DNA of 64,000 nucleotides from a virus, in the IMG/VR virus record IMGVR_UViG_3300035698_008372, positions 32,001 through 96,000 of that record; one strand, 5' to 3'. The notes beneath the pieces are model-generated. The model searched no databases and had not been told where the DNA came from. It was given only the letters and a program-made list of their open reading frames with translations. Position numbers and translations under genes: made by a program. This document shows, piece by piece, positions 47-64,000 of this stretch; position 1 is the first letter of the stretch; each line of letters starts with the position of its first letter.

Positions 47-487
47 ATGACAAATAATTATATGGTATCGGGTAGTGTGGGGGGTTTCTACGGCGGGTCT
101 GTTCCATCTGGGTGGGTGCAAATGCAATACGATGTGCCGAAACCATTCACAGAATGGGAATCTAAAATTGGAAAATCTAACAATTGGTGAAATGGTGTAA
201 ATGCAATCCCAGAATTTAAATCCAAGATACCAAGAAAAAACCCGTGGCTGGATATGTGGTATCCAAAGGTAACCATCGCGATGGTTGGTTTGCCGGCTGT
301 AAGGAATGCATTTCCTCAACAAATAGCTCAACAAATAGTCAGTGTTCAACCTATGGGAACCCCAAAAGGGGTGACATACTATATGGATGAAATTTATGAA
401 AAAAATAAATATAAACGGGCGTGGAATAAATTCAAACGATTATGCCAATTTGGGACAACCAAACTATTTATTGGAAAGCAAAAATAA
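47..487 (+). CDS. Small protein carrying a major-capsid (gp23)-like segment; one in-frame TGA at 188
   Basis: ATG 47 is in frame with ORF 254..487 across TGA 188-190; LPAVRNAFPQQIAQQIVSVQPMGTPKGVTYYMD resembles the T4-type MCP motif. Confidence 0.55.
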
Positions 488-527
488 CGGTTGACTTTGT
501 CATAAATATCTTGTATCTTCAAGTATG
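481..527 (+). promoter_or_regulatory. Early sigma70-type promoter (repeat family, copy 1)
   Basis: AAAATAACGG-TTGACT-17 nt-TATCTT. Confidence 0.85.
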
Positions 528-544
528 AAAAGAAAAGGAATATT

Positions 545-751
545 ATGGATTTATTAGACAAAATTATAGCTTATGAACAAGGTGAACTTGGGAGTGACGC
601 AACGATTGATTTATTTTCGGAACTGGTAATAAGTGGCCAAGCATGGTCATTACAGGGTCATTATGGCCGAACCGCTTCCCAATTGGTTACTGAAGGTTTC
701 TTAGCTGAAACTGGTGAGGTTTTAAGATATTTCGACAGTGAGGTGGCATAA
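545..751 (+). CDS. Small early phage protein
   Basis: ORF with AAGGA SD directly after early promoter. Confidence 0.75.
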   Translation: MDLLDKIIAYEQGELGSDATIDLFSELVISGQAWSLQGHYGRTASQLVTEGFLAETGEVLRYFDSEVA

Positions 752-906
752 TGTGGTATCGCATCAAATACCGTGTCGCGATGGCATGGATTAACGCAAT
801 TCTATTAGGAGATTTAATAATGGAAAAATTACAATGGGTAAAGTTTTACACAATTCAATCAACCGTATATGTACTATACGGGTTAAATTCGGTAATTAGA
901 GTATAA

Positions 907-1104
907 TTGATGAATAAATATATTAATAAGTATTTTGAATGGGTCACGTCGTTTAGTACGGGGCAACGATTTATGATATTTGTATCATTATTTGCTCTGG
1001 CCATAGTAGTTAATGTAAACGGAGCGGTGTGGCTGGGGTATCCTATGCTTTTTCTAGCTGGAAACTTTTTTCCATCGTCACTATTATTTAAAGGAAAAAG
1101 ATAA
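907..1104 (+). CDS. Small membrane protein
   Basis: Two hydrophobic segments. Confidence 0.55.
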   Translation: MMNKYINKYFEWVTSFSTGQRFMIFVSLFALAIVVNVNGAVWLGYPMLFLAGNFFPSSLLFKGKR

Positions 1105-1105
1105 A

Positions 1106-1336
1106 ATGCGTTCCGTCATTTTAAAGAGTAAAGAATCAATTATAGTGGGTGACCACATCTATCAAATGGATGAACAGGGTGAACCCAACAGGGATATTGA
1201 ACCGATCCACATTGAATTGGCGGCATGTAGTGATGACTATTTAAAGTCATTGTCACAAATGGAATTATTGGCGTTCGCTAATTATTTCAGTGAATATAGA
1301 GAAGTTTACTTCGGAGGGTACACATTCAATGCTTAA
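1106..1336 (+). CDS. Hypothetical protein
   Basis: ORF with SD in operon. Confidence 0.6.
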   Translation: MRSVILKSKESIIVGDHIYQMDEQGEPNRDIEPIHIELAACSDDYLKSLSQMELLAFANYFSEYREVYFGGYTFNA

Positions 1337-3651: not shown

Positions 3652-4818
3652 ATGGCCGATTTATTACCAATAGCAATATGACCTGGTAGTGGTTCTGCGG
3701 TAAGCGGTTCAACTCCATACGGATTTTACGATGGGGATACATCTTTTCAATCGGATGCACCCAAGTTCGCCAATTGGTCGGCTAGAACAATGGGATATCC
3801 TATTGTGGAAATTGAGATGCAGGATATTAACTTTTATGCGGCATTTGAAGATTCAGTAAATGAATATTCATCCCATGTGAATCAAATCAATATTAGGGAC
3901 AATCTGTTACATTTACAGGGTCAACCAACAAGTTCAAATATTAGTCAAAATGTGGTGACTCCCACATTGAGTAGGACTGTATTTCTATCACAGCAGTATG
4001 GTTCTGAAACAGGGGCAGGTGGGTTTGTCGATTGGAAAATGGGGCATATCACAGCGACTCCACTTACAAATGAATATGATTTAAATGTGTTATATGCTGA
4101 CGTATCAGAAAGTGGTGCGGCTATTGAGGTCAAGAGGGTATTTCATGATGGAACACCCGCTATCACGCGTTATTTTGACCCCTACGCTGGAACAGGTGCC
4201 GGATCGTATAACATGATGGATAACTTTGGTTGGGGAAATATGACCCCAGCCGTTCAATTTATGATGATGCCCATTTATGCGGATTTATTGAGAATTCAGG
4301 CTATCGAATTTAACGATCAAATCAGAAAAAGTGCATATCACTTTGAGATAAGAAATAACAAATTGAAACTATTTCCAATACCAACTCAATATTTTGAGGT
4401 ATGGTTTGAATATATAGTAAGGGCTGACAGGGATGGTGCACTGGTAGCACCTTATGGTGAAACCACCACTGGTAAAATATCCGATTACTCCAATATACCA
4501 TATAACAACATGACATACGCTTCAATCAATTCGGTTGGTAGACAATGGATACGCAAGTATGCTCTTGCTAGTGCAAGGGAAATATTGGGTGATATCCGAA
4601 GCAAATTTGGGTCAATCCCAATTCCAAATTCAGAAGTTCAGTTGGATGGTGAAACCATGCGAGCAGAGGCAATTGCCGAAAAAGAGCGGCTTGTTACTGA
4701 GTTAAGGGAAACATTGGAGGCAATTAGTAGGAAAGCACTAATGGAAGCTGATAAAGAAGAAGCAGAAAATTTACAGGATAAACTAAACAAGATTCCGATT
4801 CACATTTACATAGGATAA
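3652..4818 (+). CDS. Neck/head-tail adaptor protein (T4 gp13-like); in-frame TGA at 3679 read as Trp
   Basis: SD AGGAG before ATG 3652; I[W]PGSGS...TPYGFYD; LGYPIVEIE- and WIRKYALA-type motifs. Confidence 0.85.
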
Positions 4819-7251: not shown

Positions 7252-9630
7252 ATGGCCGAAAGAATAGTTTCCCCCGGTGTTTTCACCAACGAAACTGATC
7301 TATCGTTTCTTCCACAAGGAATTTCCGAAATCGGTGCCGCAATTGTTGGGCCTACAGTAAAAGGGCCAGCATTTGTACCAACCGTTATTCGAAGTTTCCA
7401 GCAGTTTGAGGAAGTTTTCGGTACGACTGATAATCGTTATTATACACCGTATGCAGTAGAACAATATTTAAGAAGCGCGGGGTCAGTGACCATCGTTCGC
7501 GTTCTTGGATTAGGAGGATATAGTTCAGATTATGTCGCTCTTCAAATATCAAGTTCCGATGGAACTAAAACAGTGGCAGTCATTGCACCATCTCGTGGTG
7601 GATTGAATGGACTGGGAGATTTATCCGCAAGTACAATTACTGGCGACTGATCTTCAGCTACACTAACATTGTCTGGATCGGATACAACCGTAGCGTCATA
7701 CGCGATTTCATTCAATACCGGCAGTGCAAATTACATTGAAAATGTGATAAGCTCTAGTCCACAGGTTCAAACTTCTGGACAAACCACATTGGCCGGATAT
7801 CTTTACAAAAATTACAAAACATATCAATCTAGTCAGGGTCTTGATTCTAACGCTTCCGCTTCAGTGGCAAGTGGTACTATGAATTTTGCTTTTGATGCGA
7901 CATCTGCAACTGCAGTTGATAATTTAGCTGGGTACACCCCATCTATCCAATCACAGTTAATCAATGGGTCGAGATACAATCTATTTCAGATTTATACTCG
8001 TTCTCATGGGACAGATGTTAATAGTAAATATGTTGTAGTAATTGCAAATGTGAAATCCGCCGCGACTGTTCCGGGTAGCAATTTCGGATCATTTTCATTA
8101 CAAGTTCGCAAGATTGATCAAGTGGCTTGGAAACAAAAGAATGAGACAGTAGTGGAATCGTGGGATGATCTAAATTTCAATCCTACAAGCACTAATTACT
8201 TCGCACGTGTCATTGGTGACAGGTATGCGGATATTGATAACAATGGTAAATTGACATATAACGGTGACTGGCCTAACAAGTCCAATCACATTTATATTAG
8301 AAATTACTCAGCTATTGCCGATGGTTCGGTTCCTGTAACAGTAGTCCCAATGGGATTTGCAGCTGCAAGTGTAACTGATCCAACTACAACAGCTGTACCA
8401 GTGGCGTCATATTTAACCGCACAGGTGAATCCAGATACCAATGTATTTAACTCATCATATTACTATGGTTGGGATAATTCAAAGGATGATAATCGCCAAT
8501 ATCTAGCGCCAGTGCCAAATTCAGCAGGCGTTGGTAACAACGTATCAATGAGTTTAGAAGATATGACTGGTGATGATGCAGCTAGTACCACTGGAAATAC
8601 ATACGCGAGTTCAAGTCAATATATTACATTGACAAATTCAAACATCAAACAGCGTCAATTTGGAGTTCCATTCCAAGGAGCGTTCGATGGTGATAATCCG
8701 GCAAATCCAAAATCGGTCGGTGTGAATATTTCTTCCGCCAACACGATGGGATTCAATCTCACTGATAGTACGACAAGTGGGTCAGTTGCTTACAAAAAGG
8801 CTATTAACGCCGTAAGTAATCCAGATGAATTTGATATCAATATGTTGGTAACTCCAGGTATTATCCACAAGTGGCATAGTATAATTACAAACCATGCCAT
8901 TGACAAAATGGAAGCTAGGGGTGATGCATTTTATGTATTGGACTCGGCTGATATTGATGACGGTATTGATGATGTAACTGATACTATTAGTGCATTAGAT
9001 ACAAATTATGCGGCAACATATTACCCTTGGGTTAAAATTGCCGATAGAAACACTTCACTTCCAGTATGGGTTCCACCAGGAATCGTATTACCGGGTGTAA
9101 TTGCTTATACTGATAGGGTATCCCACGAATGGTTTGCACCAGCAGGTCTAAATCGTGGTGGTCTTACTACAGTTCTTGAAGCAAAAACACGCTTGACACA
9201 TGATGAACGTGATACCCTTTATGAAAATAGAGTTAATCCAATCGCTTCATTCCCAGCACAGGGCGTGGTGGTCTGGGGTCAAAAGACCCTTCAGGCATTA
9301 CCTTCTGCATTGGATCGTGTTAATGTGAGGCGTCTATTAATTAAACTGAAGAAATATATTGCTTCAACATCAAGATACTTGGTATTCGAACAGAACAATT
9401 CTGCAACAAGAACGAGATTTCTAAATATGGTTAATCCATTCTTAGAATCCGTACAGCAGAACAGTGGTTTGACTGCATTTCAAGTTGTGATGGACGAGAC
9501 GAATAATACTCCAGATGTGATTGATAGGAACAAGCTGGTTGGCCAGATTTTTATCCAACCGACTCGGACTGCAGAATTTATAGTCCTTGATTTTATTGTT
9601 GTTCCAACGGGTGCAACTTTTCCTTCATAA
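7252..9630 (+). CDS. Contractile tail sheath protein (gp18-like); in-frame TGA at 7648
   Basis: SPGVF N-terminus, WFAPAGLNRG, VRRLL, QPTRTAEFI; ORFs 7252 and 7669 in the same frame. Confidence 0.95.
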
Positions 9631-49258: not shown

Positions 49259-49314
49259 AACAAAAACTGGTGGGGTGGGCTTCTCGGTCTGCCCCTAAGT
49301 AAACGGAGAAATAA

Positions 49315-49770: not shown

Positions 49771-49816
49771 TTGAAAATAAATCGTGTCTTTGGGAAATAA
49801 AACACTATTTATATAC

Positions 49817-49889: not shown

Positions 49890-49900
49890 CTATTACAAAT

Positions 49901-49973
49901 GCGATTGAGGTGTTCAAGGGGAGCACGTCGGTATTCCATATCGAAGGAGTGGGTTCGAATCCTGCCGATCGCT
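49901..49973 (+). tRNA. Non-canonical tRNA-Gly(TCC)
   Basis: GCGATTG/CGATCGC, U73, loop ATTCCAT, TTCGAAT T-loop, A8. Confidence 0.8.
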
Positions 49974-49984
49974 CTATTAAAAAT

Positions 49985-50057
49985 GCGATTGAAGTGTAAC
50001 AGGTAAGCACGCCGACATACCATGTCGGAAGAGTGGGTTCGAGTCCTACTGATCGCT
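49985..50057 (+). tRNA. Non-canonical tRNA-Gly(ACC)
   Basis: GCGATTG/TGATCGC, U73, loop ATACCAT, TTCGAGT T-loop, A8. Confidence 0.75.
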
Positions 50058-50084
50058 CTATTAATGCAAGGAAAAAAATGTTAT

Positions 50085-51242
50085 ATGAACTTCTCAAGTA
50101 AATTTTTCGATATCAAACCATTTGATATAGAAGAAGAAAAACAAAATCTAATCAATAATTTGGACTTTTTACATTCTATGACAGTGGAAGAACAAACCCT
50201 GTATAAGAAATGGCAGGAGTTCAATAAGAACGAACATAAGATCAGGGGGAAAGCCCACCTGTTTGATGTGTTTGAAAAAAGGTTATGGGCACCAACCGAT
50301 ATCTATGATGAGGATTTAACCATTAAGGAAATTAATGCGTTGGAGCCAGTTGTAGAATATGCAGGAAGCGATGAAGCTGCTGATTGGTCATTGTATAGGA
50401 TGTTAATTCACACAATGGATTGGTCTGCGAACCCCGGTAGAAATATGAAATTCTATGTAAAGGATGCTGTCACTCGTAAGGTGTTGGGTCTAATATCAAT
50501 GGGTTCAGATGTTACCAGTATCAAGGTCAGAGATGATTATATTGGTTGGAAAAAAGAAGATAAATTTGTAAATCACAAGTTGAATAATACGGCTATAGCC
50601 AGCACAATTGTGTCGGTTCAACCATTGGGTTATAACATGCTTGGTGGAAAATTGATAGCCGCGTTGGCAACAGTGTCAACAATTAGGGACAAGTGGGAAA
50701 AGGAATATGGTGATGTTCTAGCTGGGGTTACAACCACTTCATTATATGGCATCCATTCACAATATAACGGAATTCCACATTGGAAAACGATGGGTGAATC
50801 TGCTGGCAAGATTAGGATCAAGCCAGATGATAGTGAATATTTGAAATGGAATAAGTGGCTCAAAGAGAATTATCCAGATGAGTTTGAAAAAGCCATTACT
50901 GGAACGGGTCCCAAACAGAATGTATTAAGCAAGGTATTCAGCCATTTGAAAATTAGAGGTTATGAGCATGGATTTCATAGAGGTGTCTATTTTGCGTCAA
51001 TCTATGATAATACAGTGCCATTCTTAAAGGGTGAAATTGAACAATCTGAGCTCAAAATGAAACTGAAATATGAACAGGATTATGAATATATCGACAGGTG
51101 GTGGAAAAAGAAAGCCATAAGACGATATCAGAACATGATTGCACAGGATAGGATTAAACCAGAGAAATTATTCTATGGTGATATCGTGGGTGTATCTTGG
51201 GAAGAATGCCAAGAAATGTATTTAAAAGAAGTGGGGAGATAA
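50085..51242 (+). CDS. DUF4338/DruA-like protein (probable GNAT/Mom-related fold)
   Basis: NPGRNMKF, QPLGYNMLGGKLIA, TTTSLYG..SQYN motifs. Confidence 0.65.
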   Translation: MNFSSKFFDIKPFDIEEEKQNLINNLDFLHSMTVEEQTLYKKWQEFNKNEHKIRGKAHLFDVFEKRLWAPTDIYDEDLTIKEINALEPVVEYAGSDEAADWSLYRMLIHTMDWSANPGRNMKFYVKDAVTRKVLGLISMGSDVTSIKVRDDYIGWKKEDKFVNHKLNNTAIASTIVSVQPLGYNMLGGKLIAALATVSTIRDKWEKEYGDVLAGVTTTSLYGIHSQYNGIPHWKTMGESAGKIRIKPDDSEYLKWNKWLKENYPDEFEKAITGTGPKQNVLSKVFSHLKIRGYEHGFHRGVYFASIYDNTVPFLKGEIEQSELKMKLKYEQDYEYIDRWWKKKAIRRYQNMIAQDRIKPEKLFYGDIVGVSWEECQEMYLKEVGR

Positions 51243-51415
51243 TGAGTAAAACACTAGTTGAGAAGATCGAAGAATTGGGTACTGATTGGAGCAAGGTGAA
51301 TACCGCTTTGCATCACTTATGGTCAAAAAATGTCGGAACTGATAATTATGACAAAGAAGAATGGAAATTGTTAGAAAAATATATATATAAAATTATATTG
51401 AAAGACAGGGGATAA
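51242..51415 (+). CDS. Small hypothetical protein
   Basis: Coupled ORF. Confidence 0.55.
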   Translation: MSKTLVEKIEELGTDWSKVNTALHHLWSKNVGTDNYDKEEWKLLEKYIYKIILKDRG

Positions 51416-51419
51416 GCTT

Positions 51420-53180
51420 ATTTATAAGTCAATTTATTTCGAAGCGGAAAAACAGAAGATTCATTTGTGGGATGATGACCGCGGCTATTTCACAATACCA
51501 TATAGACGTTATGGGTATATAAAAGATAGGGGCGGCACATATACTTCATTATATGGGGACAGGCTTAAGAAAATCCACAAGTGGGGCAAAGATTCCACTG
51601 GATTATTTGAGAGTGATGTACACCCTGAAACAAGAACATTAATTGATCTGTACACCAATGACGATGAACCATCAAAAGGTAACAAAACGATTATTATTGA
51701 TATTGAAGTCGAGGTCACAGATGGATTCCCAACTGCTACTTTGGCCGAGAATAAGGTTACGGCTATATCAATTTACGATTTTACGGATAAGAAATATTAT
51801 GGTTTGGTATTGGAAAATGGCAAGGGTATTATCAAGCCATCCACAACTCCAGAGCTTGACATTGAAGTGTTTGATATGGAAGTTGATTTGTTGAATAGAT
51901 TCATGCAGATATACCTACGCATAAAACCAACTATTATTACTGGTTGGAATGTGGATAGATTTGATGTAACATACCTATACAATAGAATGGCCGATCAGCT
52001 GGATGAAGATGTAGCCAATTGCTTGTCTCCAATCGGTGTGGTACATTGGAGTGATTTCAGGGGTAGCTACAGAATCGCTGGGGTTGCAACAATGGATTAC
52101 TTACAGTTGTATAAGAAATTTACATTTACGCAACAGGCTTCATACAGATTGGATGCGATTGCTGATTTCGAATTGGGTGAACGCAAAATTGAATATGATG
52201 GTACACTAAACGAATTATATGAAAATGACATTGAAAAATTTGTCCAATACAACATCCATGATGTTCGACTAATTGAGATGTTGGACAAGAAATTGAATTT
52301 TATAGAAATCGCTCGTGGTATTTGTCACTTGGGGCATGTTCCGTATGAAGATATTTACTATGACAGTAGATACCTAGAGGCTGCTATTCTTGTTTATCTG
52401 AAAAAATTGAACATCATCGCTCCGAATAAGCCCGAGCGTGAGGGTTGGAAGGATGAAATTGGCTTTGAGGGTGCTCACGTTCAAAAGCCCAAGAAGGGTC
52501 GTCATAATTGGGTATATGATTTGGATTTAACATCAATGTATCCAAGCATCATTATGTCGTTGAACATTTCTCCAGAGACAAAAATAGGTAAAATAGATGG
52601 GTGGGATTCCAATAAATTTGTGAAAAAAACCCCAAAAACCTATACTGTCAAATATGGTACAACCGCACTCCAATCCATGGATCAGGATGAACTACAGGTA
52701 TTTTTTGATACCAATCATGTGTCGGTATCGGCCAATGGGATATTGTACAAAACTGATAGGGATGGCCTAATCGCGTCACTCCTGAAAAAGTGGTTCGACG
52801 AACGTGTTGAATTCAGAAAATTGGCTAAGAAGTTTGCCGACGCGGGTGATAACGAGAAATATGATTATTTCAATAGACGACAACATATCCAGAAGATTCT
52901 CCTTAACTCACTTTTTGGGGCACTCGGTTTGCAGGGTTGGAGATTCCATGACGTAGACAACGCCCTTGCAGTTACATCGACGGGGGTAGAATTAATTCGA
53001 TTTTCCAAAACCATTGCAAACCATTATTACAATACTGAGCTTGGTAAAGAAATTGAACTTGAAATGGAAGATGGGTCTATCAGAAAATTATATGAAAATT
53101 GGCCAATCCATGTAAAAAGGGGTGGTAAAAAAGTTCAAATTTTAGCCAAAAATCTCAAAATAAATGATGATATTCTCTAA
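51420..53180 (+). CDS. Family B DNA polymerase, N-terminal subunit (probable ATT start), ending in a partial Hint-like tail
   Basis: Exo DIEVE, GWN..FD, YNIHD; DLTSMYPS; KILLNSLFG. Confidence 0.9.
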   Translation: MYKSIYFEAEKQKIHLWDDDRGYFTIPYRRYGYIKDRGGTYTSLYGDRLKKIHKWGKDSTGLFESDVHPETRTLIDLYTNDDEPSKGNKTIIIDIEVEVTDGFPTATLAENKVTAISIYDFTDKKYYGLVLENGKGIIKPSTTPELDIEVFDMEVDLLNRFMQIYLRIKPTIITGWNVDRFDVTYLYNRMADQLDEDVANCLSPIGVVHWSDFRGSYRIAGVATMDYLQLYKKFTFTQQASYRLDAIADFELGERKIEYDGTLNELYENDIEKFVQYNIHDVRLIEMLDKKLNFIEIARGICHLGHVPYEDIYYDSRYLEAAILVYLKKLNIIAPNKPEREGWKDEIGFEGAHVQKPKKGRHNWVYDLDLTSMYPSIIMSLNISPETKIGKIDGWDSNKFVKKTPKTYTVKYGTTALQSMDQDELQVFFDTNHVSVSANGILYKTDRDGLIASLLKKWFDERVEFRKLAKKFADAGDNEKYDYFNRRQHIQKILLNSLFGALGLQGWRFHDVDNALAVTSTGVELIRFSKTIANHYYNTELGKEIELEMEDGSIRKLYENWPIHVKRGGKKVQILAKNLKINDDIL

Positions 53181-53242
53181 GTTTATACTATTTATATACA
53201 GACACAATGTATCAATGTATAAAATATAAATTGGAGAGTAAG

Positions 53243-54082
53243 ATGAAAAAGGGGTCAGCGAGAACATTACAATATTGATTGGATAAAGGGTATAAAGGGG
53301 AAGAAGCAGAAAAAATGCGTATGAGCAGAATTCCAGGTACTATAGAATATTTTACTATATTTAAGGGGCTCCCATTGAATGAGGCCGAAATTGCGAAAGA
53401 AAATTATAACAAAAGGTCCGTTCCGACATTGGAAAATATGATACGCAAGTATGGGGAAACTGAAGGTGAAATTAGGTGGGGTGCATATCGTGAAAAACAG
53501 GCAAAATCCAATACATTTGAATATAAGCGTGATAAGTATGGTTGGACATTGGAACAATTCGATGCTTATAACAAATCAAGGGGATTGTCTGGTAAAGACA
53601 ATGGCAATTATGGGTCGAGCTATTATGAAGCTTGGGTTAAAAAGTATGGAAAAATAAAGGCCGATGAAATGAATAATGCTTTAGGTGAATTGAAAGCCAA
53701 AGGGGGGAAATCTCAAAAAGGTGTACCCAAATCATTTGTGGCTAGAAAAAATATGAGTATAGCTGCAAAGAAAAGGATAATGGATCAGGGTACTTACATT
53801 TCATATAATCCAAATTCAATTCCGATAATTGAAAAATATGGAAAAGAAAATGGATATAAATTTCAACATGCTGAAAATGGCGGCGAATATTTGGTTAGGG
53901 AAGTTTACTATTGGGTAGATGGGTATGATCATGAAAATAATGTGGTGGTTGAATATGATGAAAAATACCATGAAATGCAAACGGAAAAAGATAAAATTAG
54001 GCAACAACATATAATGGATGTGTTGGGGTGCAAATTTATAAGAATTAAAGAATCTGGAGAAATTAAGATTTATGAAAATTAA
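53243..54082 (+). mobile_element. Free-standing homing endonuclease between PolB halves; in-frame TGA at 53276
   Basis: QY[W]LDKGY; KYG repeats; QHAENGGEY..YWVDGYD..VEYDE. Confidence 0.8.
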
Positions 54083-54993
54083 AAATATAAGGGAATCAAA
54101 AGGTGTCGATGTGGATCATGTTATCTACATCGACACGTAGTGCGGATTCACTATTTATTTCGTCAACCGCGATGGTGAGCAAACGATATGGAAACAAGAA
54201 ATTCAGTGATGTCATGCTGTCACAGTACATCTTGACAATAGCTGGTGACACCCAAAAATTCATAAATAACTCGTATGACTATTTTGCCAAGAAATTCTGT
54301 AATCTTCCCGGTGCACACCGGTTTGAGATTAAACAGGAATTGATTGCAAAGTCAGCTGTATTTGTCAATGCTAAGAAAAATTATGGGTTGCGTGTTATCA
54401 ATGACAATGGTGTGAAAGTGGATAAAAATGTGTACAAAGGCTTGGCCGTAGTTCGCAGTGATTTCCCACAATCATACAGAAAATTGTTAGGTGAGGTGCT
54501 AGGTGATGTTCTAGCGGATGTTCCAAAAGATAAGATCGACGATCGTATTATTGAATACAAAAACAACATGAGATACTTGAATGTCGAAGATATCGCCAAA
54601 CCAACTGGGGTTAAGAATATCAAAAAATATTTGGTTCCACCTGGAGCGGGTGGGGGATTTTCTACTTGGAAGTCTCGTTGTCCTATCCATGTCAAATCAT
54701 CTATCATATACAATGATTTGATTAAGCATTTTGACAAACAAAAGAAGTACGCATTGATAGGGGCCGGCGACAAGGTCAAATGGGTGTACTTAAAGAAAAA
54801 TAATTTAGGATTAGAAAGTGTGGCTTATACAGGTCACGAAGACCCAAAGGAAATTATGGATTTCATATATAATTTTGTGGATAGGGATAAGATGTACGAT
54901 AGTATATTTTTGAACAAAATCACATCAATATATTCTGCCATGGACTGGTCGTTGCCCATAGATAAAAAGTTCTCGATGGACAGATTTTTTTAA
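54072..54993 (+). CDS. PolB C-terminal subunit; YIDT/DSLF motif interrupted by 7 nt (54138-54144)
   Basis: GGAG SD at 54056; YIDT*...DSLF; KKNY, KGL, C-terminal clamp-type MDRFF. Confidence 0.8.
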
Positions 54994-55044
54994 TCGTTTG
55001 GGCACATTAATGTATATGTATATATAAAGAAACAAGGAGTTACA

Positions 55045-55764
55045 ATGGAAAAAGGAAAATTAGTACGGTTTATTCAAAAATATCATTTGAATGGCAACGT
55101 ACAATCGGTTTCAATGAATAGTGACGGTGAGACGTTAAAGGCGGAGTTTGTAACTTCGGACAGAGGGTTGCTCGGAACTATTAAAATGAAGAATTGGGGA
55201 TTTGAAAAATCCAAAATTGGTATCTTGGATACTGAGAAGTTCTTAAAATTATTGGCAGTATTGGATAATGATGTTAAATTGTCATTGTTAAAAGCTGGCG
55301 ATACGGCAATCACATTAAAGGTCGCGGACAATAGTTCTACAGTCAATCTGATGTTATCAGACTTGTCGGTAATTCCAGCTGTACCGCCTTTGAAGTATGT
55401 GCCGCCAATGAATCTCAAGTTGAACTTGGATTCAAATTTCATTAAGAAGTTTATCGCTGGTAAGGGTGCTCTATCCGATGTGGATAATTTCACAGTGGTC
55501 ACAGATAACGATTCTGTTAATTTGGTGATCGGTTATGCATCAATTAATACGGACAGGGTTATTGTTCCAGTTGATACTGAAGTATTCGAAAAGATTGACA
55601 AGGTATCATTCAACGCAAATATCTTCAAAGATATCCTGCAATGTAACCGTGAATGTAAAAGTGGAGTAATGGAAATCAGCTCAGAGGGTCTTTCAAAACT
55701 GACCTTTAATGTTGATGACTATGAAGTTGTGTATTTCTTAGCCGCATCTGAAAACGTAGGATAA
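55045..55764 (+). CDS. Sliding clamp (gp45-like)
   Basis: Size, beta-rich pattern, position between polymerase and clamp loader. Confidence 0.75.
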   Translation: MEKGKLVRFIQKYHLNGNVQSVSMNSDGETLKAEFVTSDRGLLGTIKMKNWGFEKSKIGILDTEKFLKLLAVLDNDVKLSLLKAGDTAITLKVADNSSTVNLMLSDLSVIPAVPPLKYVPPMNLKLNLDSNFIKKFIAGKGALSDVDNFTVVTDNDSVNLVIGYASINTDRVIVPVDTEVFEKIDKVSFNANIFKDILQCNRECKSGVMEISSEGLSKLTFNVDDYEVVYFLAASENVG

Positions 55765-55770
55765 ACAACA

Positions 55771-56697
55771 ATGGTTAGAAAAACATCTCATTCGATATGG
55801 TGTGAATTATATCGACCAACATCAATGGAAACATTCGTAGGAAATGATCATCTCAAGGATAAAATTGATATGTACATTGAAACCAATGATCCGCCCCACC
55901 TGTTATTTCATGGTAAGGCGGGCACTGGTAAAACTACATTGGCCAAGGTCATACATAATAGTATAGACTGTGACCACTTGTACATCAATGCTTCAGACAA
56001 AGGTGGTGTGGATTACATTAGGACTGATATCATTCCATTTGCCAGTAGTGTTGGATTTAGGGAGTTGAAATTGGTTATCCTCGATGAGGCCGACTTTTTG
56101 ACTCCACAATTCCAAGCATCACTACGCAACGCTATGGAAACGTACGCGATGAATACTCGGTTCATATTGACTTGCAATTACCCCGAACGGATAATCGAAC
56201 CAATACAGAGCCGGTGCCAAATGTTTGAAGTTTATCCTCCAAGCAAAAAGGAAATCGCCGTACATGTCAGTGCAATATTGGCAAAAGAGGGTGTGAACCA
56301 TACCGCGAGTGACATCGGATTGATTGTCAATAGTAAATATCCAGACATTAGAAGTATTATCAATACATTGCAGAAACAATCAATTAATGGTGAGCTGAGA
56401 TTGGACAAGCGTTCGGTTGTGGAAAGTGACTATAAATTGAAGATATTGGATGTACTGAAAAAGCAGGATAAGAAAAACTCATTTGCTAGTATTAGACAAA
56501 TGGTGGCGGACAATTCAATCAGAGATTTCGCTGAGATTTATTCAATGTTATTTTCTGAGGTGGATGATTACGCTAAGGGTCATATCGCTCAAACGATATT
56601 GATTCTGGCCAGATACCAATTGAGTGATTCTCAAAGTGTCGATAAAGAAATAAATTTTATGGCATGCGTAATAGAATTGTTAGATTGTATTAAGTAA
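55771..56697 (+). CDS. Clamp loader ATPase (gp44/RFC-like)
   Basis: YRP, GKAGTGKT, INASD, LDEAD, SRC, DIRS. Confidence 0.95.
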   Translation: MVRKTSHSIWCELYRPTSMETFVGNDHLKDKIDMYIETNDPPHLLFHGKAGTGKTTLAKVIHNSIDCDHLYINASDKGGVDYIRTDIIPFASSVGFRELKLVILDEADFLTPQFQASLRNAMETYAMNTRFILTCNYPERIIEPIQSRCQMFEVYPPSKKEIAVHVSAILAKEGVNHTASDIGLIVNSKYPDIRSIINTLQKQSINGELRLDKRSVVESDYKLKILDVLKKQDKKNSFASIRQMVADNSIRDFAEIYSMLFSEVDDYAKGHIAQTILILARYQLSDSQSVDKEINFMACVIELLDCIK

Positions 56698-57501
56698 ATG
56701 GAAGAACAATTTGTAGACACGTCGAGGGTAGAACTTAGGATTATTACTACCGCTATAGCAAAAAGGATGATTGTAAAATACCATTACAGTCACGCATGGC
56801 CCGCATCAACTCAAGCTCCATTAGGGGTATTCTATAAGACAGGCAAGAAACATAAGTTTCTTGATGAGGATGATGAAAAATTGATTGGTTGTATTGTCTA
56901 TGGCAATCCAGTTGGTCGTAGAGCGGCCGCATCTATAGTGGATAGTGATGAGATTAACGCTCATGAAAGTGTTTATGAATTGACAAGGTTATTCATCCAT
57001 GATGGATACGGCAAGAATATTGAGAGTTATGTTATAGGTCAATCGTTCAAATGGTTGAAAGAGAATAGGCCTAAAATCAAAATGTTGATCAGTTATGCCG
57101 ACCCAGCACAGGGTCATGTTGGAGGAATCTATAAGGCCACCAACTGGGGATACCAAAGTGCGGATGATATGAAGTTGATGTTCAATTACCCAATTTCATT
57201 AACAAACGATCCTTATGATTGGATTCATAGCCGTACTGTATTTTCAAGGTACGGAGTGACTCCATATCCAACGGATGATGCAGTAGCCAAAATGAAGAAA
57301 GCGGTGGGCCAGACATTCTGGATGAAACGAGAATGTGTGAAGCATCGCTATATTCAATTCTTAGTGGACAAGAGGGAAAAACGGAAATTGATAAAATTGC
57401 TGAAGCACCCATTTCGAGACTATCCTACAACGGCCGACGACGATAGTGAAATTATTGAAGTGATAGTTGACGGGAGTGGAAAATTTGGGAAGTTCATGTA
57501 A
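56698..57501 (+). CDS. Mom-like GNAT DNA-modification protein, paralogue 1
   Basis: HYSH, LIGCIVYG, ELTRL, KNIES, ISYADPAQGHVGGIYKATNW. Confidence 0.8.
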   Translation: MEEQFVDTSRVELRIITTAIAKRMIVKYHYSHAWPASTQAPLGVFYKTGKKHKFLDEDDEKLIGCIVYGNPVGRRAAASIVDSDEINAHESVYELTRLFIHDGYGKNIESYVIGQSFKWLKENRPKIKMLISYADPAQGHVGGIYKATNWGYQSADDMKLMFNYPISLTNDPYDWIHSRTVFSRYGVTPYPTDDAVAKMKKAVGQTFWMKRECVKHRYIQFLVDKREKRKLIKLLKHPFRDYPTTADDDSEIIEVIVDGSGKFGKFM

Positions 57502-58268
57502 TGGAGAAATATACAGACATATCTAGAGTAAGTGTTCGACCAATAGATCGGACTACTGCTAAAGGTATCATTGAAAAATACCATTATAGTCATTTGATTC
57601 CAGCTACTTTACAGCTGTCATTGGGTGTATTTTATGAATCTGATGACACAGGTAAATTTTTTGATGACAATGAAAAATTGATAGGGTGCATAATGTATGG
57701 GCATCCATCTGGCAGAATGGTAGTGGATTCCATAACCGAAGGTGATTTGCTCGATCGGGAAAATATAATGGAACTTTTGAGGTTGTTTATCCATGATGGT
57801 TATGGCAAGAATATTGAGAGTTATGTAATCGGACAATCGTTCAAATGGCTCAAAATCAACAGACCAAAAGTAAAGGTGTTAATCAGCTTTTCCGACCCAG
57901 CAGAAGGTCATTTGGGTATCATATACCAATCGACCAACTGGTTGTTTCAAATGATTCCATCATCTGGTAAGTGGCAATTTTCAATGGAAAAAAACCCGTA
58001 TCATTGGGTACACCCCAGAACAATATTTGGAAGATATGGATTTTGTGGTGTGGAAGATATGAAAAAGTCATTTGATAAGAACTTCTATGCCAAGCGCCTG
58101 ACAAACAAATTTCGATATTTGTACATACTGACCAATAAATCGGAAGCTAGGAAAATCAAGAAAAATCTAATCCACGAACTACTGCCATACCCAAAGTCAA
58201 TTGATTATATGGAAGAAATAGTGGAAGTCGAAGTGAGCGGAAATTCGAAGCTCGGAAAGTTCATATAA
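57501..58268 (+). CDS. Mom-like GNAT protein, paralogue 2
   Basis: Same motifs; ISFSDPAEGHLGIIYQSTNW. Confidence 0.8.
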   Translation: MEKYTDISRVSVRPIDRTTAKGIIEKYHYSHLIPATLQLSLGVFYESDDTGKFFDDNEKLIGCIMYGHPSGRMVVDSITEGDLLDRENIMELLRLFIHDGYGKNIESYVIGQSFKWLKINRPKVKVLISFSDPAEGHLGIIYQSTNWLFQMIPSSGKWQFSMEKNPYHWVHPRTIFGRYGFCGVEDMKKSFDKNFYAKRLTNKFRYLYILTNKSEARKIKKNLIHELLPYPKSIDYMEEIVEVEVSGNSKLGKFI

Positions 58269-59035
58269 TGGAAAAATATACGGATACTTCTAGGGTCACT
58301 ATAAGGCCGATAGACAAAAAGACTGGTATTAATATGATTAAAAAATACCATTACACTCACAAAGCACCTGGTACTACTCAGGATGTGTTGGGTGTGTTTT
58401 ATAAGGGTGAAGAAGCCAACAAGTTTTTCGATGATGATGAAGTATTGATCGGGTGCATGTTATATGGTCATCCAGTTGGTAGGTGGACAATAAAATCCAT
58501 TATCGAAGATGAAAATATCAAATCCTATAATGTGTATGAATTACTGAGGTTATTTGTACACGATGGGTATGGCAAGAATATCGAAAGCTTTGTCATAGGT
58601 CAATCATTTAAGTGGCTGAAAGAGAACCGACCAGAGGTGAAAATATTGGTGAGTTATGCCGATCCTGAAGCCGGTCATGTGGGCATCATATACCAATCAA
58701 CTAACTGGATGTTCCAGATTCCAGAACCAGGTGGAGCAATGATGACTTCACTAACCAAAGACCCGTATGTATGGGTTCACCCAAGGTCAATGCACGCAAA
58801 GTTTGGTGCTTGTGGGGTGGATGGTCTCAAAGAGGCATTGGACAAACCATTCTACATGAAAAAATCACCTCCAAAATTTAGATATGTATATCTATTGACG
58901 GACAAAAGGGAGAGCAAGATATTGAAATCGAAATTCGTATATCAACAATCTCCATATCCAAAAGAGCACGATTATGTTGAAAAAGTTATTGAAATGGTGC
59001 CCAATGAAGAGAAAAAATTTAGTAAATTTATTTAA
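58268..59035 (+). CDS. Mom-like GNAT protein, paralogue 3
   Basis: Same motifs; VSYADPEAGHVGIIYQSTNW. Confidence 0.8.
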   Translation: MEKYTDTSRVTIRPIDKKTGINMIKKYHYTHKAPGTTQDVLGVFYKGEEANKFFDDDEVLIGCMLYGHPVGRWTIKSIIEDENIKSYNVYELLRLFVHDGYGKNIESFVIGQSFKWLKENRPEVKILVSYADPEAGHVGIIYQSTNWMFQIPEPGGAMMTSLTKDPYVWVHPRSMHAKFGACGVDGLKEALDKPFYMKKSPPKFRYVYLLTDKRESKILKSKFVYQQSPYPKEHDYVEKVIEMVPNEEKKFSKFI

Positions 59036-59067
59036 ATGGTATATATTTATACCTGAAAGGAAATGTT

Positions 59068-59331
59068 ATGAGTCAATTAAATCCAAGAAAACCATTACCA
59101 AAATCACCACCAAAACTAGACCTAGCGAAGGCAGAAACCATCGTATGTGAACAAGAGGGGTGTGGTAATATGTTATTTCTTCAGTCATTCGTGATGAAAA
59201 GAGTATCGGCCATTTTGAGCCCAAGCGGTAAAGAAGAATTACTACAAATTCCAGTTATGAGTTGCGGAGCATGTGGTGGGGTCAATAAGGAATTCATGGC
59301 CGCATTCGGAGAACCCGACAGCGATGGTTAA
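59068..59331 (+). CDS. Small Zn-ribbon protein
   Basis: CxxxxC...CxxC. Confidence 0.7.
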   Translation: MSQLNPRKPLPKSPPKLDLAKAETIVCEQEGCGNMLFLQSFVMKRVSAILSPSGKEELLQIPVMSCGACGGVNKEFMAAFGEPDSDG

Positions 59332-59773
59332 TACCAAGATCAAAAAGGCCAAAACCTTATTTGAACATGTAAACCATGTCAATGAAAAACAAACCAAAAA
59401 TTACTGGGAAACCTTATCTGAAGCCGATAAGAAAAATTGGTCCAATTATATGATCCACAGGTTTTTGTCGATGGAACCAGCATTTATTGAGATAGTGAAT
59501 GAGGTTCAAAAATATAATCTCACTCCGGATATGGTGTATAAATTCTACATAGATGTTCTGCCAAAGGGTAAGCGGTGGTTGAAATATGTAAAAAAAACGG
59601 CCAAACAGAAATTCGAGAGTGGATTGGTGGAATTGTTTGCAAAGCATTTTGAGGCTAGTATTCTTGAATCGACTGAATACATTGAATTATTGAGCCGATC
59701 TGAAATTGAAGAGATTTTGGACAAATATGGTCTGGATGCAAAAACAAAACGAAAATATCTGAAAGGAATTTAG
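59324..59773 (+). CDS. Clamp loader small subunit-like (gp62-like)
   Basis: LFEH..YMIHRFLSM..LPKGKRWLKY. Confidence 0.65.
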   Translation: MVNTKIKKAKTLFEHVNHVNEKQTKNYWETLSEADKKNWSNYMIHRFLSMEPAFIEIVNEVQKYNLTPDMVYKFYIDVLPKGKRWLKYVKKTAKQKFESGLVELFAKHFEASILESTEYIELLSRSEIEEILDKYGLDAKTKRKYLKGI

Positions 59774-59774
59774 A

Positions 59775-59954
59775 ATGTCATTACACAAGAGATGGTTAAT
59801 AGAAGAAATCCAGAAATACTGGAATGTAACACAAGAGGAAGCATTAAGGTATGCAGATACATACGATGCGACTGAGCAAGGTAGAGTTGAATTGAAAGCC
59901 ATATTGATCAAATGTGGAGTTTCCAGAGAAAAATTAAGAGAATTGAGATTATAG
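59775..59954 (+). CDS. Small hypothetical protein
   Basis: 59-aa ORF with AAGGA SD. Confidence 0.5.
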   Translation: MSLHKRWLIEEIQKYWNVTQEEALRYADTYDATEQGRVELKAILIKCGVSREKLRELRL

Positions 59955-59962
59955 GAGCTAGT

Positions 59963-60580
59963 ATGGAAGAAAATGTAGATTTAGAAGAGGGTGTAAAAGA
60001 ACCCGGAGAAATAGAAGAAGTATCGGTGGCGTTTGATTTGGGGTCATTCCAATTGGATAATGGTATTGATTTGATCAATAACGCTCTCCATTTTGTGGGA
60101 GAATTCAATTCAGAATCAATCGCTGATATTATTAATAGGATGACATTTATGTATAATGTCAACTCCGAGAGGGATATCAATTTAATGGTGACTTCTCAAG
60201 GTGGTGATGTGTACGCATTATTCGGCCTGCTCGATTTTATACATGGCCTAAAGGTAAAGGTAAATGTGTATGTAATTGGTAGTGCATTGTCTTCAGGGGG
60301 TATCCTGCTTGCATGTACGACGGGTGAACGAGTGGTCGGCCCACATTCAGTGGTTTTATTCCATGATGGTGAAATATCAATGGGTGGCAAATTGGATGAT
60401 GTAAAGGGTCAAAGTAAGCACATGGAAATGTTAGCCGATAAAATTCTCGATATGTTGGAAGAAAAAACTTCAATGAATCGCAAGTTTTGGCTTGACAATA
60501 CCAAAAATGACTTGTATCTTGAAGCTGACGATTGTGTAACTTATGGGATAGCTGATAGAATTGGAGGAATGCATGACTAA
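59963..60580 (+). CDS. ClpP-like protease
   Basis: TSQGGDV, ALSSG, LFHD, DLYL, YGIAD. Confidence 0.85.
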   Translation: MEENVDLEEGVKEPGEIEEVSVAFDLGSFQLDNGIDLINNALHFVGEFNSESIADIINRMTFMYNVNSERDINLMVTSQGGDVYALFGLLDFIHGLKVKVNVYVIGSALSSGGILLACTTGERVVGPHSVVLFHDGEISMGGKLDDVKGQSKHMEMLADKILDMLEEKTSMNRKFWLDNTKNDLYLEADDCVTYGIADRIGGMHD

Positions 60581-61454
60581 TCACGTTTCCAATTCACAGG
60601 TAGTGAAGTATTCAAAATGCCCATTACATTGGAAATTGGAGTATATTGATGAGATAGGGGACTATGAAACGAATATCTACTTGATATTTGGTACATCCGC
60701 TCATACTGTTATACAATCGTATATCAAGACATTGTATAACGAAAGTGTTAAGAAAGCCAATGAAATGGATTTGGATCAAATGCTCATAGATGAAATGAAA
60801 TCGGAGTATGCTAAGGCACAGGAAAAGGGCGATCCGAATCCTTGTACCAAAGCAGAGATGATTGAATTTTATTATGATGGTATCAAAATATTCAGATATT
60901 TGATAGCACATCAGAAGGAATATTTCCCTAAGAGAAACCACAAATTACTCGGAATAGAAACTGGGTTGGGTGTGGAATATGGCCCAGTAGAATTCGCTGG
61001 GTATCTGGATGTGGTTATTCTGAATGATACCACTAAAAAGATCAAGATAATTGACTTGAAAACGTCTACCAATGGGTGGAACAAGTGGCAGAAAATGGAC
61101 AAATCCAAATCCAATCAACTGTTATTCTATAAGAAATTCTATGGAGAAAAGTTTAATATCCAGATGAATGACATTATGGTGGAATTTTTGATACTCAAGC
61201 GCAAGTTATATGAGAATATGGATTTCCCACAAAAGCGAATACAAAGGTTTGTGCCCGCAAGTGGTACACCTTCTATAAACAAAGCGATGAATGATTTGGA
61301 AACCTTTGTAAATGAGGCTTTCACTGAAACAGGAGAAAAGAATACGGAACGGAAATATCCGGCAAGGTCTGGCAAAAACAATAGAAATTGTACATACTGC
61401 CCCTTCAAAGATCATCCAAAGTATTGTGATCCAAAAGATAGGATAAGGGGTTAA
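60573..61454 (+). CDS. PD-(D/E)XK exonuclease (RecB/Cas4-like)
   Basis: CP..W, FGTSAH, GYLD, IIDLKT, QLLFY, CTYCPF..C. Confidence 0.85.
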   Translation: MTNHVSNSQVVKYSKCPLHWKLEYIDEIGDYETNIYLIFGTSAHTVIQSYIKTLYNESVKKANEMDLDQMLIDEMKSEYAKAQEKGDPNPCTKAEMIEFYYDGIKIFRYLIAHQKEYFPKRNHKLLGIETGLGVEYGPVEFAGYLDVVILNDTTKKIKIIDLKTSTNGWNKWQKMDKSKSNQLLFYKKFYGEKFNIQMNDIMVEFLILKRKLYENMDFPQKRIQRFVPASGTPSINKAMNDLETFVNEAFTETGEKNTERKYPARSGKNNRNCTYCPFKDHPKYCDPKDRIRG

Positions 61455-61456
61455 TT

Positions 61457-61900
61457 ATGACCATACTTTTAAGAATATTATTAACGGATATGCTGGATAA
61501 TCCAATGGAGAACATAGTTCTGCACAGAATTGAGAAGGCCACAAAAGAACTGAAAACTGGTTTTGCGGTTGAATTTTGGTATATCAAGGGGGAAGTGGGA
61601 GTTCCCAGAGTACAGAAATTTATTGATAAAATTTCAACGATGTTCCACTGCCAAATGTCGGTAAAAATGGTAGAATCTGATGCAGACCAACCACATGGAT
61701 TTGTACTCCCGCCACATGAAAAGCATGTGTGGTTCAATGTCACTCCAATGAGGTACAAGAATTTGCACATAAGTTATAGGTTTGAATATGTGTACGATGG
61801 AATAGAAGATATGGGTAACGCTGTATCCGATTTTATCAAAACAGTTAAATTCTATGAAAAACCAAAACAAGATAATAGACGACAAAAAAGGAACGATTAA
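61457..61900 (+). CDS. Hypothetical protein
   Basis: ORF in operon. Confidence 0.6.
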   Translation: MTILLRILLTDMLDNPMENIVLHRIEKATKELKTGFAVEFWYIKGEVGVPRVQKFIDKISTMFHCQMSVKMVESDADQPHGFVLPPHEKHVWFNVTPMRYKNLHISYRFEYVYDGIEDMGNAVSDFIKTVKFYEKPKQDNRRQKRND

Positions 61901-62307
61901 TGAATGTGAAAATCGGTATTGTGGGCAGTCGCAAATATGCCAATAATAGGAAAATGAAGGATATCATATTCAAGCTGAAAGAACGGTTTGGTGACGATGT
62001 TGAAATAGTAAGTGGTGAACAGAAGCAAGGTGCCGATGGAATGGCTAAGAAAATAGCATTGGAAATGGGCATGAAATATGTGTCATTCCCGCCAAAGCAT
62101 TATCCTTACAATAGTTATTGTATTATGGAATCATCCGATTATGGCAAGCCATACAGGGTGTGGTATTATAATGAACGGAATACTCAAATAGCCGAATATT
62201 CCGATTATGTGTTCGCATTCATTCCAGAGGGTGTGGATTCTAGGGGCACAATGGACACCGTAAAAAAAGCTCGTAAATTGGAAAAAAAAGTCGTCATTTT
62301 TAACTAG
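61900..62307 (+). CDS. SLOG/DprA-like nucleotide-binding protein
   Basis: IVGSR, VSG..GAD, RN..IA, SRGT. Confidence 0.8.
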   Translation: MNVKIGIVGSRKYANNRKMKDIIFKLKERFGDDVEIVSGEQKQGADGMAKKIALEMGMKYVSFPPKHYPYNSYCIMESSDYGKPYRVWYYNERNTQIAEYSDYVFAFIPEGVDSRGTMDTVKKARKLEKKVVIFN

Positions 62308-62341
62308 TTCATTGATATATATAAATATACAGGAGATAGAA

Positions 62342-62539
62342 ATGGATAAAGACAACACAAAATTAACAACGGTAAAGCTGATCGACGATTGATATAGGCA
62401 GTTCAAATTGCATGCTATCAATGACGATTTCACTTTGCAAAAACTTGTAAATCGAACCATACATAGATATGTAAATGACGATGTATATAGAAATGATATG
62501 TTAAATTATGATATGCCATTGAGTGGCAGTAAATATTAA
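62342..62539 (+). CDS. Small ribbon-helix-helix-like protein; in-frame TGA at 62390
   Basis: AGGAG SD; KLTTVK..FK..FTLQKLVNR. Confidence 0.65.
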
Positions 62540-62552
62540 TCGGAGGTTATAA

Positions 62553-64000
62553 ATGGCTGACAAAGTTATAAAGAATTGAAATGTCGGAGACATAAGAAAC
62601 GGGACAGAGGTTTTAGCACCAGAACAGAGAAAAACACTATTAATATTATCGGATGATCTGAGAATGTCGTCTGGGGTAGGGACAATGACTAGAGAAATAA
62701 CTATGGGTATTTGCCATAGATTTAATATCGTTCAAGTTGGTGGAGCTATAAACCATCCAGATAAAAATAAAGTGATTGATTTAAATCAAAGCTTTCAAGA
62801 CGGAACGGGTGTCCCAGAGGCACATTGCAAGGTGTATCCAGTTGATGGATATGGAAATTCGGATGTCGTTAGACAAATAATGAATACTGACAAACCCGAT
62901 GCCATACTACACTTCACAGACCCTAGATTTTGGGGTTGGTTGTATCAAATGGAACATGAGATTCGTCAGAATATTCCAATTTTTTACTACGCTTTGTGGG
63001 ATGATTTGCCAGTACCAATGTACAATAAAAGATTTTATGAATCATGTGACTTGATTATGTCAATTTCAAAACAATCACATTACATCCATAGATCGGCATT
63101 AATGGAAACTGACACCAAAATAATTGACATGACCATAAATGAGGTACTAAATGAATATCCAGACGGAAACAATATGGAGACCAGAGTTAGTTATGTTCCG
63201 CATGGTATCAATGAAAATGAATTCTATCCCATAGAAGAGGGTCATCCGGAATGGGATGATATGAGGAAATTTAGGAGTGAAGTCACTACAGGGACTCTTG
63301 GAAATATCGAATTTATATTCCTATACAATAGTAGAAATATTAGAAGAAAAATGACAACCGATTTGATATATGCATTTAAAGTATTTTGTGACGCTCTGCC
63401 CCAAGGTGAAGCCGACAAATGCTTATTGTTATTACATACACAGCCGGTTGACGAAAACGGAACGGATTTGCCAGCTGTAATCAGTGAATTGGTCGATAAC
63501 TATAATATCGTTTTTTCACATCAAAAATTAGATACTAAGCACATGAACTACCTATATAATATATCGGATGTCACTGCACTAATTTCTTCAAATGAAGGAT
63601 TTGGATTGGGCACAGCTGAATCATTAATGGCGGGTACTCCAATTCTGGTTAATACCACTGGAGGACTTCAAGATCAAGTTGGGTTCAAAAGAGAAGATGG
63701 TGAATATGTCGGAGTAGAAGATTATAGAGATGGTTGGGGTTCCAATCATGATGGTCGATATACTGAGCACGCGGAATGGTGTAAACCAGTCTGGCCTGTT
63801 AGTAGGGCTATAGTGGGTTCGGTTCCAACTCCATATATTGCAGACGACCGATGTGATTGGCAAGATGTGGCAATCAGAATGTTGGAATGGTATGGCACAC
63901 CAATAGACGACCGCAAAGCTTCTGGGAAGTCTGGTCGTGAGTGGTTACTTTCAGAAAAGACGGGGATGTCTGCTTCAGAAATGGCTCGACGATTTGTGGT
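62553..64000 (+). CDS. GT4-family glycosyltransferase (runs off window); in-frame TGA at 62577
   Basis: GGAGG SD; LSDDLRMSSGV, TDPRFW, SRNIRRK, SNEGFGL..ES. Confidence 0.85.

Follow-up and report, generated by a model that had tools for sequence, protein, structure and literature searches.

TGA stands for tryptophan (Trp) in many genes of the phage represented by IMG/VR virus record IMGVR_UViG_3300035698_008372, judging from the residues that homologues carry opposite these codons. The stretch analysed here (the window, 64,000 nt) comprises bases 32001-96000 of this linear contig of 140,003 bp (37% GC; completeness 71% by CheckV), which holds nearly all its genes on the + strand. We consider it probable that the phage has begun using TGA as a second Trp codon, that a phage tRNA with anticodon UCA, tRNA(UCA), decodes it, and that late genes tolerate TGA in a host with the standard code.

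The source is a large phage, a distantly T4-like myovirus of about 190 kb from an aquatic, non-gut lineage. Its contig encodes virion proteins (T4-type portal, major head protein, prohead protease, large terminase, tail sheath and baseplate hub), replication proteins (RecA/UvsX, a gp32-like single-stranded DNA-binding protein, a DnaB-type helicase, a split PolB, a split ribonucleotide reductase, a clamp loader and ThyX) and modification functions (three Mom-like genes and a sugar-modification cluster). The nearest isolate is Microcystis phage Mel-JY01, at 47-54% amino-acid (aa) identity, and hundreds of uncultured IMG/VR contigs are nearer (57-93%). A blastn search of the whole window against the phage collection gave no match, nor did related-locus searches with an 848-aa virion protein and an M15 peptidase of this phage as queries. 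Exact-protein look-ups recovered the same phage from ENA, JGI and Logan in longer assemblies, which run past both contig ends. JGI sample series Ga0075124/5 and Ga0222658, which contain it, presumably come from Antarctic saline lakes.

In-frame TGA codons and the residue they encode

A reading of the window made from sequence alone had listed 21 TGA codons in frame within 14 open reading frames (ORFs), and all 21 coordinates are correct, on the + strand and in ORFs that stay open under genetic code 4 (TGA = Trp). When genes are re-called, code 4 leaves the ORFs concerned whole and code 11 breaks them up; public ENA and JGI gene calls show them broken likewise. The peptides quoted in that reading (D[TGA]ISTG, I[TGA]PGS, K[TGA]IIFRA, WG[TGA]IEDN and Y[TGA]LDKG) are all present, and its remark that no in-frame TAG was seen at Trp sites can be extended: only TGA breaks the frames, never TAA or TAG. 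Pfam and PHROG domains and homologue alignments cross the TGAs of the sheath, baseplate hub, RecA/UvsX, head-tail adaptor, 957-aa and 848-aa proteins (Table 1). At every site checked the codon is reproduced independently: 13 window sites in the fetched loci, comprising 8 of the 21 listed and 5 further ones, read TGA without exception in the 4-8 independent assemblies from ENA, JGI and Logan that cover them (99.97-100% identical), among these 6 other assemblies for the 957-aa gene and likewise 6 for the 848-aa gene.

Our own gene caller adds about 16 in-frame TGAs to the 21 listed for the window, some of which are true stops (see below). The small ORFs at 15506-16230, in which TGAs come in pairs (15551/15557 and 16009/16012), are weak and doubtful as genes. 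Genome-wide counts give 721 TGG against 76 internal TGA. TGG is the dominant Trp codon, as had been noted, and TGA makes up 9.5% of Trp codons, with occurrences in all 10-kb segments. No shared 3′ context was found at the TGAs, again in agreement with the sequence-only reading, and the base that follows TGA fails to tell sense TGAs from stop TGAs. Several TGAs do lie near a 5′ end, as that reading had claimed, within 10-40 codons of the start of confirmed genes; an excess near 5′ ends is only suggestive, and in the first 25-40 codons it may be inflated by start-codon choices.

With TGA masked as X, 24 sites were covered by homologues. The majority residue was Trp (W) at 16 of these, phenylalanine (F) at 4 and tyrosine (Y) at 1, which bears out the proposed assignment to Trp. 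A BLOSUM-based log-likelihood came to 49 for W against 16 for Y, and the residue profile was indistinguishable from that of 226 TGG sites. The clearest cases are the terminase, with W in 44/49, 44/49 and 47/47 relatives at its TGA sites, the portal, with W in 36 relatives, and the 138-aa gene of Table 1. At the neck site (3679) homologues have W and their alignment extends upstream of the site. The sheath site (7648) shows W 40, F 16 and Y 10 among 81 relatives, with TGA in 2 sister phages. In the 957-aa protein, site 23274 corresponds to W 3, Y 3, F 1 and H 1; in the 848-aa protein, for whose sites 2-3 relatives align, W leads at three sites and shares first place with H at the fourth (25152). 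Other aromatic residues prevail at the baseplate hub (17608; F 42, Y 7) and at RecA (40560; F 68, W 6, H 1, and TGA in 6 sister phages), and at 62577 the Mel-JY01 homologue aligns through with N.

In a sister clade at 83-93% aa identity the same sites read TGA, as do positions where this phage has TGG, so that the two codons interchange at equal positions among sister phages; in-frame TGA is absent from about 190 relatives with 57-78% identity. Glycine (code 25) is ruled out, with no G at any TGA site, as are cysteine and serine (Ser), homologues having W, F or Y and almost never C or S.

A candidate tRNA(UCA) and similar phage tRNAs

The window has no tRNA(UCA), as had been reported, and neither has the 140-kb contig, whose only tRNAs are three Gly-like genes in tandem. 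These recur with an 84-nt period and lack an encoded CCA; in the first of them the anticodon loop is abnormal, at 6 or 8 nt. Two of the three are also present in sister-clade contigs. As readers of UGA they were rejected, given their anticodons UCC and ACC and the fact that Gly never stands opposite TGA.

The search of the remaining genome that had been proposed did return a candidate, in the longer assemblies. Locus L106, which overlaps contig bases 1-4656 at 99.98% identity, carries a 93-nt element (L106:428-520) that precedes the contig start by about 15.1 kb and lies between phoH and a small-gene block. The sequence of this element is identical in four assemblies. Its anticodon loop, CUUCAAA, yields the anticodon UCA. 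It is predicted to fold into a cloverleaf whose variable arm has 6 bp (-37.3 kcal/mol, z -3.6, 0/200 shuffles as good). The acceptor AGGGGUG/CACCCCU with G73 matches Escherichia coli trpT in 6 of 7 pairs, the seventh being a compensatory change, and the anticodon loop differs from that of trpT solely by C34 to U. A1-U72, G73 and the acceptor bases are established identity elements of tRNA-Trp. The candidate has these bacterial tRNA-Trp features (A1-U72, G73, an AGGGG/CCCCU acceptor and the loop CU-NCA-AA) and departs from class I shape in its long variable arm and in a T-loop that is degenerate in this phage.

Genes downstream of the candidate are the richest in TGA (19 TGA vs 46 TGG), among them, 3′ of the tRNA, the M15 peptidase, a candidate endolysin. 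PhoH and a 462-aa CCA-adding enzyme (tRNA nucleotidyltransferase, L106:11395-12783) are free of TGA; a phage-borne enzyme of this type fits the lack of an encoded CCA in all the tRNAs of the phage. The same enzyme gene lies upstream of a very long ORF with cytidylyltransferase-like and NUDIX domains and six TGAs. Past the 3′ end of the contig, a divergently oriented small-gene block has almost no internal TGA. Next to GroES, this block encodes a 132-aa protein (L247:7571-7969) with only the GGQ domain of the RF-1 (release factor 1) family and a basic tail, which may be a codon-independent peptidyl-tRNA hydrolase; it was rejected as a substitute for RF1 or RF2, being without codon-reading domains. 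The contig itself has no RF-1 family gene.

Exact and degenerate searches of IMG/VR for the candidate tRNA gave no match, and a scan of JGI metagenome contigs recovered the same phage only. The single match in bacterial genomes, in Sphingobium, lies inside a coding region and was rejected as chance. Sister-clade contigs stop short of the tRNA region.

A pattern search uncovered five further IMG/VR phage tRNAs of the same build (Table 1), all of which ARAGORN calls SeC(tca). All six sequences share the tRNA-Trp-type acceptor stem, G73 and a conserved loop, UCCAA(A/C), on the variable arm, and compensatory changes are seen among them at 13 of 24 pairs. The T-arm is canonical in the other five, and the consensus fits the normal 7/5 acceptor/T branch. 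Their contigs are unrelated to this phage and heavily TGA-recoded. In one of them (L252, IMGVR_UViG_3300028833_004143) TGA outnumbers TGG. The glycosyltransferase encoded there shares 58% identity with its homologue in Synechococcus phage ACG-2014f, so that TGA recoding may also occur in relatives of T4-like cyanophages; of five sites at which the two align, four pair a TGA with W. A homologue search with one ORF of another contig (L254) returned two near-identical proteins only. No description of a Trp-type long-armed tRNA(UCA) was found in the literature searched, which does not prove novelty. We suggest, tentatively, that these sequences could form an undescribed family of phage tRNAs (Trp acceptor, G73, long variable arm) mislabelled as tRNA-SeC, which would act as Trp-inserting opal suppressors in unrelated lineages; the present phage would then represent an early stage, with TGA a stop in early genes and Trp in late ones.

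Gene classes, remaining stops and rival explanations

TGA is found chiefly in genes for the virion, for packaging and for probable lysis functions and in those of mobile endonucleases, and is nearly missing from replication genes. Virion and packaging genes have 24 TGA and 128 TGG (15.8% of Trp codons), against 1 TGA and 92 TGG (1.1%) for replication and nucleotide metabolism, where RecA/UvsX is the sole replication or repair gene with a TGA. Free-standing endonucleases reach 21% (6 TGA, 22 TGG), the sugar cluster 7.7% (7 and 84) and the other genes, mostly small, 8.8% (38 and 395). Virion and replication genes differ strongly (p=1e-4, odds ratio 17); heterogeneity over all classes gives p=5e-4. 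Of the gene-class specificity put forward in the sequence-only reading, the statistical bias is borne out; exclusivity is not, sugar-modification and small genes also carrying TGA.

Across the block of replication and modification genes at 41666..61454, TGAs are confined to two endonucleases and small ORFs. Both the ribonucleotide reductase (44548-48767) and PolB (51465-54993) are split by a free-standing endonuclease gene, the endonucleases being TGA-rich and the split genes TGA-free. The three Mom-like DNA modification paralogues are consecutive (56698-59035; 255-267 aa each). Ahead of the window, the portal gene (L085:8088-11264, in contig coordinates) contains an intein/HNH endonuclease insertion, and 4 of its 5 TGAs are inside the insertion.

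In the mechanism that we favour, the host would read the standard code. The phage's own CCA-adding enzyme would mature the tRNA(UCA), the host tryptophanyl-tRNA synthetase (TrpRS) would charge it, and this tRNA would decode UGA in competition with RF2. A gene translated before the suppressor has accumulated would have to avoid TGA, whereas later genes could carry it; TGA-bearing genes would therefore depend on the tRNA for their full-length product and be made in full only once it is present.

Several observations weigh against this mechanism. The candidate tRNA lies outside the given contig, and both its T-loop and its D-loop are degenerate. ARAGORN misses it by default and calls SeC(tca) only at a lowered threshold, and the nearest Rfam family is tRNA-Sec (RF01852) at 32.5 bits, under the 47-bit gathering threshold. 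A long variable arm and G73 are also identity elements of seryl-tRNA synthetase (SerRS) (PMC7609411), so that charging with Trp is not assured. The proposed search for RF1 or an RF2 inhibitor was negative in the genome parts examined, where neither a TrpRS nor any complete release factor was found. Genes with 4-6 TGAs would require efficient suppression, which has no explanation, and the presence of TGA at about 8-9% in sugar-modification and small genes makes the class rule only a bias. No T4-type late promoter pattern was seen, the motif TATAAATA occurring 12 times on the + and 18 times on the - strand without defining early and late classes.

The class bias can also be read as neutral drift. 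Recoding would then be real but would carry no selected gate: with TGA detoxified by a suppressor tRNA, TGG would have mutated to TGA wherever selection let it, and early and replication genes would be clean only because they are translated before the tRNA is present. The low and ubiquitous TGA share is in keeping with this, as are the occurrence of TGA in sugar-modification, small unknown and selfish endonuclease genes and the lack of a context signal. True TGA stops account for at most 6.5% of stops here and were already rare (8.5%) in standard-code relatives, which fits the path from a detoxified rare codon to recoding described by Borges et al. (bioRxiv 10.1101/2021.08.26.457843). Drift sits less easily with the strength of the virion-replication contrast, with several TGAs so near the start of confirmed genes (codons 10-40) that translation would abort cheaply there, and with some TGA sites that recur in sister phages at 83-93% aa identity. 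We regard it as a serious possibility, if not the one we would choose.

Some TGAs still end small genes. Genome-wide, 16 TGAs lie within 14 codons of an ORF end, and the last 5 codons of code-4 ORFs are enriched in TGA (11/92, vs 16/721 for TGG; p=6e-5). Six terminal TGAs overlap an ATG as ATGA, one in the window (13954) and five past its end (89137, 94470, 95682, 97267 and 104805 on the window scale). The ATGs of these six open ORFs of 34-137 codons, compared with 24 internal ATGA cases in which the ATG opens a short frame, of no more than 21 codons in all but two. Terminal TGA stops are followed by TAA or TAG 1-7 codons on. Among the extra in-frame TGAs in the window, that at 13954 is a real stop, the next gene (13953-14219) starting at the ATGA at 13953, and those at 34525 and 1955/1970 probably are too.

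These stops, together with the low TGA share and the class bias, argue against a host that itself uses code 4 and whose code the phage would simply follow. Such a host would account for a 140-kb contig without a suppressor tRNA. Yet with a code-4 host TGA should be Trp throughout and never a stop, which is not what is seen: its use is sparse and very uneven, it is enriched at gene ends with ATGA overlaps and backup stops nearby, the phage has a tRNA(UCA) candidate of its own, the about 190 relatives at 57-78% aa identity lack in-frame TGA, and the nearest isolate infects Microcystis, a standard-code host. A code-4 host is therefore improbable. The ATGA-overlap stops, the standard-code relatives and the phage-borne tRNA(UCA) would all point to a standard-code host.

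Insertion of selenocysteine (Sec) or Ser by a SeC-like tRNA(UCA) is less probable still. ARAGORN and Rfam place the candidate with tRNA-Sec, and its long variable arm and G73 are what SerRS recognizes (PMC7609411, PMC5389517). Against this stand the residues found at TGA sites, the sub-threshold Rfam score and the tRNA-Trp-type acceptor stem with A1-U72. The RNA that follows TGA also speaks against selenocysteine recoding: it has no more structure than RNA after TGG (-4.8 vs -5.9 kcal/mol), and thus no hairpins resembling a selenocysteine insertion sequence (SECIS). Finally, sequencing or assembly errors or decaying pseudogenes, suggested by the broken look of the genes under code 11 and by nothing else, are refuted by the recurrence of the same TGAs in 4-8 independent assemblies and in sister phages, and sit no better with frames broken by TGA alone or with damage to genes as essential as terminase, portal and sheath.

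Table 1. Features discussed in the text; plain coordinates are window positions, and those with a locus prefix refer to other loci
Feature	Coordinates	Strand	Remarks
Small gene, TGA at 188 (codon 48/146)	47..487	+	No homologue reaches the site
Head-tail adaptor/neck gene, TGA at 3679 (codon 10)	3652..4818	+	PHROG 211
Tail sheath gene, TGA at 7648 (codon 133)	7252..9630	+	Pfam/PHROG sheath match over the whole ORF
Gene with genuine TGA stop at 13954-13956	13489..13956	+	ATGA overlap; backup TAA 3 codons on
T4-type baseplate hub gene, TGA at 17608 (codon 137)	17200..17976	+	PF12322 match 28-253 spans the TGA
957-aa virion (tail/baseplate) gene, TGA at 22758 and 23274	21018..23891	+	
848-aa virion gene, four TGAs (24633, 25152, 25713, 26565)	24213..26759	+	
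194-aa gene, TGA at 27290 (codon 178)	26759..27343	+	No homologue reaches the site
138-aa gene, TGA at 31127	30824..31240	+	W in 55/55 relatives; TGA in 8 assemblies
RecA/UvsX recombinase, TGA at 40560 (codon 39)	40446..41564	+	PF00154 match 13-283 spans the TGA
Contrast block with Trp as TGG only: exonuclease, DnaB helicase, ribonucleotide reductase pieces, PolB pieces, clamp loader, three Mom-like genes	41666..61454	+	
Free-standing endonuclease, TGAs at 46521, 46665, 46872, 46932 and 47427, no TAA/TAG	46470..47582	+	Between ribonucleotide reductase pieces
146-aa gene, TGA at 48905	48818..49258	+	
Three tandem tRNA-Gly-like genes (aberrant loop, UCC, ACC)	49817..50058	+	
Endonuclease-like gene, TGA at 53276	53243..54082	+	Between two PolB pieces
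65-aa gene, TGA at 62390	62342..62539	+	
Glycosyltransferase, TGA at 62577 (codon 9)	62553..64000	+	PHROG 2170; extends beyond the window
Long-armed tRNA(UCA)	L251:5564-5660		
Long-armed tRNA(UCA)	L252:6885-6979		
Long-armed tRNA(UCA)	L253:8368-8465		
Long-armed tRNA(UCA)	L254:13689-13785		
Long-armed tRNA(UCA)	L255:7202-7297		

Comparison with known systems

The idea that recoding gates late genes is not new, being the published model for alternatively coded gut phages, and what is described here is a new example of a known recoding, with no new principle. In the Agate, Jade and Sapphire clades of gut phages, TGA is reassigned to Trp (code 4) and a late-gene switch has been modelled (Borges et al., bioRxiv 10.1101/2021.08.26.457843). 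Like them, the present phage has TGA opposite Trp, close relatives with the standard code, a tRNA(UCA) candidate, low GC and few TGA stops, and a late-gene-switch role is proposed. Unlike them, it belongs to an aquatic, distantly T4-like lineage related to cyanophage, its recoding is sparse (9.5% of Trp codons) with TGA still ending some genes, no TrpRS or RF1 was found, and its candidate suppressor tRNA is long-armed, the usual one being short-armed. The range of late-gene-biased TGA-to-Trp recoding is thereby widened from gut phages to this aquatic lineage. Because TGA still ends some genes, the recoding is probably at an early stage, which makes the phage a useful case for how recoding starts. 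On the practical side, in both this phage and its sister clade code-11 annotation breaks up the genes for sheath, terminase, portal, RecA and tail proteins.

Block-wise reassignment of stop codons has been described for crAss-like and Lak phages (Mgcod, bioRxiv 10.1101/2022.06.29.495998), and TAG=Gln has been shown by proteomics (PMC9523058). As in those phages, one stop codon here has two meanings per genome, divided by gene module. The crAss-like and Lak cases are, however, mostly TAG=Gln in phages of Bacteroidota; here TGA is the codon, Trp the residue, and a bias takes the place of clean blocks. Mycoplasma and Spiroplasma phages, whose hosts use code 4, likewise read TGA as Trp, but the uniform use of TGA, its loss as a stop and the host-supplied tRNA expected of them do not hold for the present phage.

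Long-armed tRNAs with a UCA anticodon are known as tRNA-Sec and as allo-tRNAs that take Ser, Cys or Sec (Mukai et al., PMC5389517; PMC7609411), and no Trp-type member is described in these two papers. The candidate resembles them in its UCA anticodon, G73, long variable arm and software label SeC; it differs in having the acceptor of a bacterial tRNA-Trp (A1-U72, AGGGG...CCCCU), a 7/5 branch and a codon that lies at Trp positions. All 13 phage tRNA(UCA) assayed in a cell-free system inserted Trp (PMC12636597). If the long-armed tRNA(UCA) family is a true carrier of Trp, it would be a new tRNA shape for this amino acid and a possible orthogonal suppressor.

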